NCBI RefSeq assembly: GCF_056712565.1
Contig: NZ_CM160072.1
Reading direction: 5' to 3' (one strand)
DNA length: 64,000 bases
Shown here: piece by piece, positions 4,120 to 45,565 of the stretch
How the letters are laid out: every line of letters starts with the position of its first letter
Position numbering within the stretch: the stretch's first letter is position 1
Program-made: the position numbers and the translations under genes
Notes under the pieces: generated by a model
Told to the model about the DNA's origin: nothing
Database searches by the model: none
The model's input: only the letters and a program-made list of their open reading frames with translations

Positions 4120-5215
4120 AAGCGTACAGCGAGGGCCGTATTGACGGGGATGTGTTATTCAGCTGGCAGTGCTATGCGCCACGGAAGCAGTTCGCTGACC
4201 CGGTTGACCGGCCAGTCTGCTATGACGCCAGGCACATGGCGAAGGTAGCTTTCTGGATCCACGTCATTCAGTTTGCACGTCCCGATCAGGCTGTACAGTA
4301 GCGCTCCCCGCTCACCACCATGGCCAGAGCCGAAGAACAGGGTCTTCATCTTTTCACGCAACCAGCTTTCCAGGGATTTCAACAGCGGTTTCGTTTTTCG
4401 CTGACGTTCAGCAAGCCGCTGCTCTGCCGGCATTCCCCTTATATCCGCCTCTATGGCGTACAACTGACCGATCTGCTCTAGGGCTTCTTCCGTCAGTGCT
4501 GACGGGATGCGGACGTGCACATCGTGGATCTTTCGGCGGGCATGAGCCCAGCAGGCAGCTTCCGTTATCCCACCATTGCGATACAGCTCGTTGAACCCGG
4601 CGTACGCATCCGCTTGCAGCACACCGCTGAAGCAAGCAAGATGAGTCTGCGGATGGATGCCTTTTCTGTCCGGGCTGTAAGCGAACCACACTGCAGGTGC
4701 CAACGCTGACCCGGCATTGCGGTCATCACGAACATACGCCCACAACCGCCCGGTCTTCGTCTTCTTATTACCCGGCAGCAGTACCTGGACCGGGGTATCA
4801 TCGGCATGGAGTTTGCCGTCAGTCATGACATAGCCATGAAGCGCCTCTTCCAGCGGAGACAGCAGCCGGCAGCATGCATCCACCCAGCCCGACAGCAGTG
4901 AACGGCTCAGCTCCACACCTTGCCGGCCGTATATTTCTGACTGGCAATACAGCGGGGTGTGCTCTGCATACTTCGAGGTCAGCACGCGGGCCAGCAGCCC
5001 CGGTCCGGCGATACCCCGCTCGATGGGCCGCGAAGGTGCAGGTGCCTGCACGATGGCATCGCACTGAGTACAGGCATGTTTTTCCCGTACCGTCCGGATA
5101 ACCCGGAAGGCGCTACGCATCAACTCCAGCTGTTCGGCGGTATCAGTCTCCTCCTCGCCAGGAACGGGCTGACTCACTGTAACCACCTCCGAAAACAACT
5201 CTGCAATTATCAGAA
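4120..5215 (-). mobile_element. Truncated IS66-family element (right end with terminal GTAAGCG... repeat; 5' part missing)
   Basis: Contains C-terminal two-thirds of an IS66 TnpC-like transposase and an IS66-like terminal sequence near 4120-4150; no tnpA/tnpB upstream. Confidence 0.6.
4155..5198 (-). pseudogene. IS66-family transposase TnpC, N-terminally truncated (347 aa of ~520)
   Basis: ORF retains CxxC zinc-finger and DDE core region typical of IS66 TnpC but lacks the N-terminal leucine-zipper region and tnpA/tnpB partners. Confidence 0.7.
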
Positions 5216-6687: not shown

Positions 6688-8241
6688 TTACTTCGCTCTC
6701 AGCTTATTGTAGTGATAACCCGAGGTAAAAATACCAGAGACATCAGACAACTTTAAACTGGCTATCTGGGGAAGCAGAACATACATGGTTTTTCCTTCCG
6801 GCACGACAGAAAGCCTGAACTGAGATTCAAGAATGTTCAGCAATGCGTTCAGTTTTTTCCTGTTTCTGAACCGGCCCGGGCCACACTGGAGAATATAATT
6901 TTTCCTGACACGGGGCGGGCATTCTCCGCGGCACTCCTCAATGAGCCAGTCGAACAGCTCCTCGGCGTCCTTCTGCTGCAGTTCAGATTCATCAGGTAAC
7001 GCAAATAATTTTTTATATTCATCTGTGTACCACGAACTTATTACGACAGCAGACGTCATGATATCGGCAGAGATTTTCCCTTCACCATAGCTGAAATACT
7101 GAAATAACGCTGCAATTCTTGCAATGTTTTCTGTTTTTTTTGAAACATGTCCCCGAAACGGGCTTAAGGGTCCGGAAGGGGATAAATCCTGCTCCAGAAC
7201 ATTATAGTGCTCAATAAATATTTTTTGCGCTTCAGGCGAAAAATGCAGACAATACCGTTCATCCTCACTGGATTTTTCAATACTGCCTCTGGCCAGTTCC
7301 ATTAATCGTTCATGAAATGCCGTTAATGATCCTCCCGGAATCACAGCTCCGTTAATAAAGCGTTTCCCCTGCGTGGTTGCAGGTTTACTGATAAGACAAC
7401 GGGCAAGAAAACCACTGTCCCTGGCAACAGAACCTTTTCGCTCCATATATCGGTCAAAAAGACCGGGTTGCACCATGAGGGATAACGTCATTCTGGCATT
7501 TTCAATCATCTGTTCGGGTTCATTCTTTCTGTCCACAGACAATACAGAGCCATCCCACATTTTGTTAATAAAAGGCAACTCAGACAGGGTATATCCATCA
7601 AATATAATACCGGCTTCATCTGACATAATACCAACTGAACGCCATTTACCACAAAGCTGATTCTTAATTGCCGCAGTCGTGGCATCATTAAAAATGAATT
7701 TATACCTCACAGGTTCTTCCGCACTGTTTTTCTGAAGTACTTCCAGTTGTCTGAGGGTTTCTGACTCATCCGCGCCTTTGCGGAGTTCTTTATTCAGTTT
7801 TGACAACAATGCTTTTTTCTGAGCCTTTAAAAGCTCTTCCTTGTTTTTCCAGACAGCCAGTTCACTTTTGTATCTGGAATATAACTGCATCTCCTGCTGG
7901 TACAGGGGCTTCATTAATAATTTGTCCACTGCGGTTTTTCGTTCTCCGGACTCGGCAAGCGTCAGGAAAAAAAGAGAGACCGGCCCCCGCAGTGTATTCA
8001 GTCTGCAGACATCAATCAGATTCTGGCAGACAAGTGAAACAGCGCCCAGGGCAGACGCTGCCACAAGCCCAAGGGGAGCCTGCGTAATTTGCTGAGCTTC
8101 AATAACGGCATCACGAATGAGTGGAGGCAGCGAACTCAGGGGAAACTCATCACAAGGCTGACCGAATGACATAGTAACCTCACTATACACAGATATAAAA
8201 GCACTGCAATTCTGGCTATTAATAGCAAAAATAGCAGTCAA
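6688..8241 (-). CDS. YfjI-like island protein (DUF3987 family); true start may be internal (about 8172)
   Basis: 517-aa ORF; size and context match yfjI-type genes of CP4-57-like elements; contains an A8/T8 homopolymer at 7134-7141. Confidence 0.6.
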   Translation of the reverse strand: MTAIFAINSQNCSAFISVYSEVTMSFGQPCDEFPLSSLPPLIRDAVIEAQQITQAPLGLVAASALGAVSLVCQNLIDVCRLNTLRGPVSLFFLTLAESGERKTAVDKLLMKPLYQQEMQLYSRYKSELAVWKNKEELLKAQKKALLSKLNKELRKGADESETLRQLEVLQKNSAEEPVRYKFIFNDATTAAIKNQLCGKWRSVGIMSDEAGIIFDGYTLSELPFINKMWDGSVLSVDRKNEPEQMIENARMTLSLMVQPGLFDRYMERKGSVARDSGFLARCLISKPATTQGKRFINGAVIPGGSLTAFHERLMELARGSIEKSSEDERYCLHFSPEAQKIFIEHYNVLEQDLSPSGPLSPFRGHVSKKTENIARIAALFQYFSYGEGKISADIMTSAVVISSWYTDEYKKLFALPDESELQQKDAEELFDWLIEECRGECPPRVRKNYILQCGPGRFRNRKKLNALLNILESQFRLSVVPEGKTMYVLLPQIASLKLSDVSGIFTSGYHYNKLRAK

Positions 8242-9401
8242 ATCAATATGAGGTAAAATTTTTTGTTGATTTAATGGTTAAATAATAACCACAGTGTATT
8301 TTGCTGCTGAAGAAAGACAAAATGAATCTGTGTGTCCCCTCCTTCCCTTCGGAGCACATCCACTATTCAAATTTTACACAACCACGTACGAACAAAAAGC
8401 ATCATCCCGGGTATTGCAGATACCGGTTTCCTGCCGGGAAGAATCATAAACAGAACACCGGGAATAACGCCTTCAGGAATCACCCCCCCTCCTGAAGAAG
8501 AATAAAATAAAGAAGACTACAGTTCCTGCACTGAATGCTGAGTACAATATTTTATGGACAGGATGACATTTTTATAAATAACAAAAACCATTTAATACTG
8601 ATACATCAATAAAATACTTCTTCCCTGCTGACACAGATAAAATGCACCATTTTTTCTTCAAATACTTCTGTATAATCGCCAGCCAATGATGAGAATGGAT
8701 TAAAATAACACTTCTTCGACAAACACAAAAACAGCCTTCATTTTACATCATCATCCAGTTTCAGTTAACCCCGGACGAGCGACAGTGTTTCAGTACAGGA
8801 ATTAAAAGCCAGCTTTTGCTCAGTAAAACACACTCAACTAATAATATCTCAGCAGATATTATCCTGACCAGGACACCTCACATTACTGAATTCTCTTCCG
8901 ACAGTATCACTGCACAAATAAAAAGAACGGGATAAATATTCAGACCGGAAGAATGGTGTCACAAAAGCATTTAATCATTACGCATGACCAGGAAGGGAAA
9001 CACTTAACCACATGGTATCAACAGATATCATTACGTGTGCACTCTTATAAAAAACACACAGAAGAAGTAAGATAATTATAAACGTAAATTTAATATCTCC
9101 CACTGACATCTCCCCCACAATACACTAAAAAATACTCACAGCAGTAAACACAGATACACCTGATAATCATACAGCCGATAAATATTTTCCCCTTTACGGA
9201 GAAATCAGCCTGCTGTTTAACAATAACGGCGTATTTTCATGGAAGGAGATCACCCAGTAACGGATAAGTCCTGATCTCCTTCATGTTAATACGCAACAAT
9301 CCCATCGATTCAAAACAATTTCAGACAGATATTATCTCCGTGAATCCCCCGCCACCTTTCCGGTGCGCGGGGTTTTGTCTTTTTTCACCGGGAATACATG
9401 T

Positions 9402-45516: not shown

Positions 45517-45565
45517 TTTAACTTATTGATAATAAAGTTAAAAAAAACAAATAAATACAAGACAA

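Follow-up and report, generated by a model that had tools for sequence, protein, structure and literature searches.

Does a homopolymer of eight A residues inside a yfjI-like gene act as a genetic switch, or is it a place where replication occasionally slips? An earlier note on the 64-kb stretch of DNA analyzed here (the window) had singled out this run, on what it called weak evidence, as a potential slipped-strand mispairing site within an intact reading frame of 517 amino acids. Our analysis leads us to favor strongly the view that the run is incidental and derived from base composition, and that it is an ordinary low-rate replication-slippage hotspot that produces sporadic pseudogenes and no switch. 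The earlier claim thus stands in the weak sense of a recurrent, low-frequency frameshift hotspot, but not in any stronger sense that would make the run a switch.

The run and its host gene

The run consists of exactly eight T residues on the plus strand, in the context ...TTTTCTG TTTTTTTT GAAACATG..., and thus of eight A residues (A8) on the coding strand, at nucleotides 1032-1039 of the coding sequence and 70% of the way into the gene (Table 1). The span originally assigned to it, 7130-7141, also takes in four additional bases, TCTG, that precede the T8. The open reading frame that contains the run extends over 6688-8241 on the minus strand, and it is open at present, as had been reported. 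The length of 517 amino acids is correct as the maximal length of this frame, counted from a TTG codon, but the protein itself is likely to be 494 amino acids long, starting from the ATG at 8172. A GAGG Shine-Dalgarno sequence is found 7 nt before this ATG, the upstream TTG has no such signal, and the start of K-12 YfjI aligns with the same ATG. An identical protein is annotated in RefSeq/PGAP as WP_001297234.1, "YfjI family protein," with 494 amino acids and a start at the ATG; we took this annotation from the 100%-identical gene of strain 7/2.

Table 1. Positions of the A8 run, its host gene and associated features in the window.
Feature	Position	Strand	Remarks
yfjI-family (DUF3987) coding sequence	6688..8172	-	Likely coding sequence, 494 codons plus stop; Pfam match, PGAP annotation, GAGG, dN/dS
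In-frame 23-codon extension to TTG	8173..8241	-	Accounts for the 517-aa reading frame; probably untranslated
Second-longest run in the gene, T7 on coding strand (A7 on plus strand)	7967..7973	-	Length 5 or 6 in three assemblies with T7 at the main tract
Walker A-like motif AESGERKT, residues 73-80	7933..7956	-	S75, G76 and K79 invariant in the alignment
Walker B-like motif IMSDEAG, residues 182-188	7609..7629	-	E186 invariant
A8 homopolymer (T8 on plus strand)	7134..7141	-	TCA AAA AAA ACA, Ser344-Lys345-Lys346-Thr347; outer bases are the last of TCA and the first of ACA
Motif S-K-x-x-E-N-x-A-R-x-A-A-L, residues 344-356	7105..7143	-	From the alignment; inside a predicted long helix, residues 337-362
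TGA reached by A9 or by a -1 ribosomal shift	7082..7084	-	17 codons past the tract; 363-aa product
TGA reached by A7	7056..7058	-	25 codons past the tract; 371-aa product

The protein matches Pfam PF13148 (DUF3987) with an E value of 1.5e-95 and a score of 321 bits, the cut-off being 27, and the match takes in positions 1-363 of a profile of 364. A search of NCBIfam yielded no equivalog and a sequence search of the PDB yielded no relative. We aligned 11 homologues from E. coli, Citrobacter, Enterobacter, Salmonella, Legionella and Pseudomonas, with identities of 24-90%, and found that S75, G76, K79 and E186 of the Walker A-like and Walker B-like motifs are invariant among them. An AlphaFold2 model of the protein (pLDDT 80.9, pTM 0.72) was compared with the PDB using Foldseek. 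The best matches are MCM subunits, with a probability of 1.0 but an E value of 1e-4 and low TM scores of 0.25-0.37, followed by RuvB and then by the helicase region of NrS-1. These helicase-like matches agree with a published account in which DUF3987 proteins have Walker A and B motifs and are assigned to superfamily 6, and in which AgaPH, a PriCT-DUF3987 protein, is an ATP-dependent 5'-3' DNA helicase (PMC11724360).

The dN/dS ratio between the two E. coli allele classes of the gene is 0.15-0.24, indicating that the yfjI-like gene is under purifying selection. Insertions in K-12 yfjI, whose product is 52% identical, have been found to be neutral in laboratory culture (bioRxiv 10.64898/2026.05.27.727350). 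According to the annotation of strain 7/2, the island that carries the gene also encodes an AlpA-like regulator, a YeeP-like GTPase, Ag43, DUF905 and DUF932 proteins, an antirestriction protein and YeeU/CbtA. Rfam, promoter and terminator scans around the yfjI-like gene returned nothing relevant to the tract.

Three further features of this region were observed. An Rfam match to IS102 RNA lies at 10391-10627 on the plus strand (74.6 bits against a gathering score of 46), just upstream of the Ag43 gene, the position expected from K-12. Upstream of the island, at 4155-5198 on the minus strand, the IS66-family transposase region differs from that of otherwise near-identical genomes: the reading frame in the window is a TTG-started fragment of 347 amino acids, and strain 7/2 has an intact tnpA-tnpB-tnpC set (L001:1086-3245). 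At about 15487, in the antirestriction gene, a TG repeat (GTCTGTGTGAAG) varies by one TG unit between copies. In strain 7/2, which has one unit fewer, the annotation gives the antirestriction gene as frameshifted; the unit is present in the window, Q65 and EC1722-1, and the gene is annotated as intact in the latter two.

Consequences of gaining or losing one A

Any change of one base in the length of the tract shifts the reading frame. After slippage by +1 or -1, translation would continue out of frame for 17 or 25 codons to a TGA and would yield a protein of 363 or 371 amino acids. Missing from both of these products are the invariant residue R352, the final part of the DUF3987 ATPase domain and the C-terminal domain, and a copy of the gene with either change is therefore expected to be a pseudogene. 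The truncated proteins are, by the same token, probably non-functional.

The run is expected by chance

The window contains five A/T runs of at least eight bases, as compared with analytically computed expectations of 3.8 under a first-order Markov model and 1.6 under independent, identically distributed composition. The tract is the only one of the five that lies in a long reading frame judged to be real. Its host gene has a GC content of 45% and encodes 36 Lys residues, 27 of them by AAA. When synonymous codons were reshuffled with the protein and its codon usage kept, at least one A/T run of eight or more bases appeared in 36% of 20,000 trials. The A8 run is no more than chance would provide and is a by-product of composition. 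It would have come about where two neighboring AAA Lys codons happen to sit between a TCA Ser codon and an ACA Thr codon, and it would have no dedicated function.

The run is not conserved among homologues

Within the motif that spans the tract, K345, R352 and A354 are invariant in the 11 homologues. Position 346, in contrast, is Lys in the E. coli island allele group only and is Met, Val, Asn or Ala elsewhere. A scan of viral contigs for relatives returned only two loci and a tblastn search of phages only three distant partial matches, and the DNA of homologues was then drawn from plasmids. None of nine more distant homologues has a run at the homologous DNA site, which reads TCT AAA ATG GCG in K-12 and TCA AAA GCG GCT in Legionella. 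Since both K346 and the run are absent from the other homologues, we regard the tract as a lineage-specific accident of K346 and the TCA codon and not as a conserved element.

A7 or A8 runs are present at other, non-homologous sites in several of the homologues, for example at nt 344 of K-12 yfjI and nt 1285 of the pCP127 gene. The K-12 run is itself an A8 (L016:6329-6336, coding nt 344-351, ...ATTGAAAAAAAAGCA...) in a gene that is 52% identical, and its separate position shows that runs of this kind are gained and lost within this Lys-rich, AT-rich family. The run is the same in both E. coli allele classes, whose DNA is about 93% identical (about 7% different). At this divergence 12 bases would be conserved by chance about 40% of the time, and the sharing of the run by both classes is thus no evidence of selection for the tract.

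Tract length in complete E. coli genomes

We used tract counts in complete genomes as a proxy for read-level length heterogeneity. Of the 5426 complete E. coli genomes searched, 1865 carry the yfjI-like gene. The allele class of the window, as defined by a 72-nt probe centered on the tract, comprises 1458 copies in 1177 genomes, and a second class comprises 765 copies in 756 genomes. Lengths of 7, 8 and 9 were probed exactly, and the variants found among these are changes of +1 or -1. With the exact probe for the window's class, T8 (plus-strand notation) was found in 1143 genomes, T7 in eight and T9 in two; the second class gave one T7 and no T9. Length variants thus account for about 0.7% of the copies in this set, and half or more of these variants come from assemblies in which other runs have also collapsed. 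All ten window-class variants, out of 11 variants of which ten were inspected, are annotated as "YfjI family protein, frameshifted." GE3, 2015C-3163 and the CE0007a/CE0026a/CE0026f set are among the variant assemblies. Shorter members of the protein cluster (300-399 amino acids) were set aside, as they are partial sequences at contig ends and are unrelated to the tract.

Some of these variants are suspect. At least five of the 11 variant copies lie in assemblies where other short runs within or close to the gene have also collapsed or lost bases: CE0007a and ETEC1731, for instance, also have a shortened A7 run at 7967-7973, and A24 also lacks a C from the CCC at 7334. Strain MLI104K2 has T7 in both of its paralogous copies. 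Its assembly (L002, NZ_CP116925.1) shows systematic undercalling of homopolymers, with A7 read as A5 and C8 as C6, with bases missing from many homopolymers nearby and with fecI and fimC annotated as frameshifted, and pseudogene calls in this record should be treated with caution. A single New Zealand cattle study contributed three of the eight T7 genomes, and some variant records, taken more widely, are drafts of unknown platform. All of this favors a rival account in which every T7 and T9 copy would be a sequencing or assembly error and the tract would be effectively invariant in nature.

Other variants do not fit that account. Over 17.5 kb, Q65 (NZ_CP180222.1) differs from strain 7/2 only in the tract, one SNP and one TG unit, and EC1722-1 (NZ_CP081192.1) likewise has no excess of homopolymer differences; for these two genomes, 17-22 kb around the gene was examined. 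None of the core essential genes in the DNA examined contains an A/T run of eight that could serve as a strict control for assembly error.

Comparator tracts

The non-coding A run beside fimS, at 45540-45547, was considered as a baseline for such errors and found to be unsuitable. An exact A7 occurs there in 643 of 4607 genomes (14%), including K-12 MG1655 and strain 7/2, and is an inherited common allele; we retain the run as an example of an unconstrained tract. This A8, which adjoins the inverted repeat TTGGGGCCA downstream of fimE, is a stable population polymorphism, with A9 in one genome.

A second comparator lies at 8471-8497, between yfjI and the GTPase gene and about 300 nt upstream of the yfjI ATG, where a perfect 8-bp hairpin (CTTCAGGA ... 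TCCTGAAG) encloses a poly-C loop (poly-G on the yfjI strand). This loop has at least nine length or sequence states in 34 copies, either G5-G9 followed by TGAT or G6-G9 followed by AT, and it differs between haplotypes that are 0-2 SNPs apart. It is thus far more polymorphic than the coding A8, although part of its variation may be sequencing error. Relative to both the fimS-side run and the poly-G loop, the coding A8 is stable.

Frameshift alleles recur on the same haplotypes

We also looked up six predicted frameshift products, representing A7 and A9 on each of three allele backgrounds, by exact sequence among about 15 billion proteins. All six were present, on 71, 53, 38, 16, 12 and 7 contigs. 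A gene-position index has, for the window's allele, 43,924 blocks with the full-length protein as compared with 81 for A7 and 105 for A9 (about 0.4%). The full-length JJ2434-type protein was found in 14,657 blocks and its two variants on 38 and 7 contigs. Variant records are spread over assemblies of Logan, ENA and NCBI and over many independent runs, among them ERR4561848, SRR30408863, SRR26082349 and SRR927598, and they include changes in both directions, which speaks against an origin in error alone. The neighboring T7 run was intact in all 20 variant loci examined; this is not independent evidence, however, because an exact match to the predicted product demands it.

When 33 copies were aligned over the 3.9 kb that surround the gene, they formed 22 haplotype groups at a threshold of three or fewer SNPs. 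One 3.9-kb haplotype occurs in three states: A8 in the window and strain 7/2, A7 in Q65 and A9 in L037. Zero SNPs separate L028 (A7) from L045 (A9), and a single haplotype group contains CE0026a, ETEC1731 and L032 with A7 together with L040 with A9. The occurrence of different tract lengths on the same haplotype indicates that bases have been gained and lost at the tract repeatedly and independently, as is characteristic of a slippage hotspot. In addition, L034 and L036, which have near-identical haplotypes, are both A7, as inheritance would predict. In view of these records and of Q65 and EC1722-1, we consider it unlikely that all of the T7 and T9 copies are errors.

Taken together, about 0.4-0.7% of sequenced copies are frameshifted, a figure in which real alleles and artifacts are mixed.

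The preferred reading: an ordinary slippage hotspot

We infer that replication slippage is the mutational process at the tract. Slippage at the A8 would generate rare +1 and -1 alleles, as at any homopolymer of eight bases, and such frameshift alleles would arise repeatedly yet stay well under 1% of copies. Frameshifted copies would be removed or lost under the purifying selection that acts on the gene. Published work is in line with this reading. Indel rates climb exponentially with run length (PMC8510543). In many bacteria, counter-selection against A/T runs in coding regions is evident at about 9 nt, and hypermutability through replication slippage is expected of such runs (PMC1088944). Slippage at coding homopolymers is a phenomenon already known and understood, of which this tract is one instance.

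The biological weight of the finding is small, namely a common E. coli island gene with a slippage-prone A8 that gives occasional pseudogene alleles. Its practical use lies in annotation and quality control. Calls of "frameshifted YfjI family protein" at this site represent in part real, rare alleles and in part undercalled homopolymers in long reads, and the tract is a handy sentinel for such undercalling, as illustrated by the one assembly that undercalls both paralogues.

Is the tract a contingency locus?

A rival reading takes the A8 for a contingency locus, at which programmed slipped-strand mispairing would switch YfjI between on and off states at high frequency. A true switch of this kind would be an unusual case of simple-repeat phase variation in E. 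coli, governing a mobile-element helicase. In its favor, a change of +1 or -1 does give an early stop, and A7 and A9 alleles both occur, sometimes on identical haplotypes. Frequent length polymorphism, however, is not seen across the lengths probed (7, 8 and 9): the frame is intact in over 99% of the approximately 2200 copies from complete genomes, the only departures among these lengths are +1 and -1, and variants amount to about 0.4% in the large index. There is also neither excess length nor maintenance across homologues, since the tract is expected by chance (P=0.36) and the nine more distant homologues have no run, and its position in the gene is distal. Compared with what a switch in mismatch-repair-proficient E. 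coli would call for, eight A/T bases make a short run. Tracts that are truly unconstrained or unstable present quite another picture in these data, as illustrated by the fimS-side run (14% A7) and the poly-G loop (at least nine states in 34 copies). We therefore regard a contingency locus as highly improbable.

Is the tract a site of programmed recoding?

The run could alternatively act on the message, with A_AAA_AAA directing -1 ribosomal frameshifting or transcriptional slippage, so that, as with dnaX, one gene would yield both the full-length protein and a truncated isoform of 363 amino acids. The heptamer A AAA AAA is indeed in the X XXY YYZ register relative to the zero frame, as expected of a slippery site, and the -1 frame closes after 17 codons to give a dnaX-like truncated product. 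Moreover, AAA-AAA sequences are reported to be capable of frameshifting in E. coli (PMC1851650). The surroundings of the heptamer nevertheless argue against recoding. Predicted folding of the 94 nt downstream is no more stable than that of shuffled sequences (minimum free energy of -17 versus a mean of -18.4 kcal/mol, z=+0.45), and no good Shine-Dalgarno-like element precedes the site, the only candidate being a weak GGGGA. The site is absent from every homologue outside the E. coli island allele group, and hence there is no conserved dual product. With regard to transcriptional slippage, which calls for a run of about nine or more depending on the organism, the run is eight, and counter-selection is typically evident at nine (PMC1088944). 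Programmed recoding is accordingly given very little credence here.

It is also conceivable, as a speculation, that slippage gives a partial rescue of A9 mutant alleles. Ribosome sliding on poly(A) tracks was rejected, given that about 11 or more consecutive A residues are required and the run has eight.

A further proposal draws on these ideas: a low-frequency, reversible on/off or isoform switch, operating through DNA slippage, transcriptional slippage on A9 alleles or -1 frameshifting, would produce a YfjI of 363 or 371 amino acids and thereby modulate replication or mobilization of the AlpA/Ag43 island in a subpopulation of cells. Such a protein would keep the Walker A/B core and lack the R352 helix and the C-terminal domain. 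We saw no sign of phase variation or programmed recoding at the tract in the complete genomes, the large index, the homologues or the downstream folding, and we hold this proposal to be very doubtful.

Comparison with known systems

The host protein belongs with AgaPH and the YfjI of K-12 CP4-57. It shares with them a full-length DUF3987 match and conserved Walker A-like and Walker B-like motifs. The best solved-structure matches of its model, at low TM scores, are the AAA+ motors MCM and RuvB, and its gene lies within an AlpA-containing integrative island. It is 52% identical to K-12 YfjI, neither a PriCT domain nor an adjacent primase-polymerase was seen, and its helicase activity is putative.

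With the contingency loci of Neisseria, Haemophilus and Campylobacter, the tract has in common a homopolymer in a reading frame whose length sets the frame. Unlike those loci, it is in frame in about 99.5% of copies, has no spectrum of lengths, is short, lies in the distal third of its gene and is not conserved, and the product is an intracellular helicase-like protein and not one with a surface or restriction-modification function. With dnaX-type -1 frameshifting at A AAA AAG, it shares a slippery heptamer, A AAA AAA, in register and an early stop in the -1 frame. It differs from dnaX, and from the slippage at A9/T9 of IS elements, in having no stimulatory structure or Shine-Dalgarno-like element, in not being conserved and in comprising eight bases, not nine or more.

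The closest likeness is to the non-programmed homopolymer hotspots described by Baranov et al. (2005, PMC1088944) and by the Foster laboratory (PMC8510543). Here as there, an A/T run in a coding sequence gives rise to rare +1 and -1 changes, which recur on the same haplotype, and the truncated products are annotated as pseudogenes. Nothing material separates this tract from those hotspots, and at eight bases it lies one base below the usual 9-nt length at which counter-selection becomes evident.
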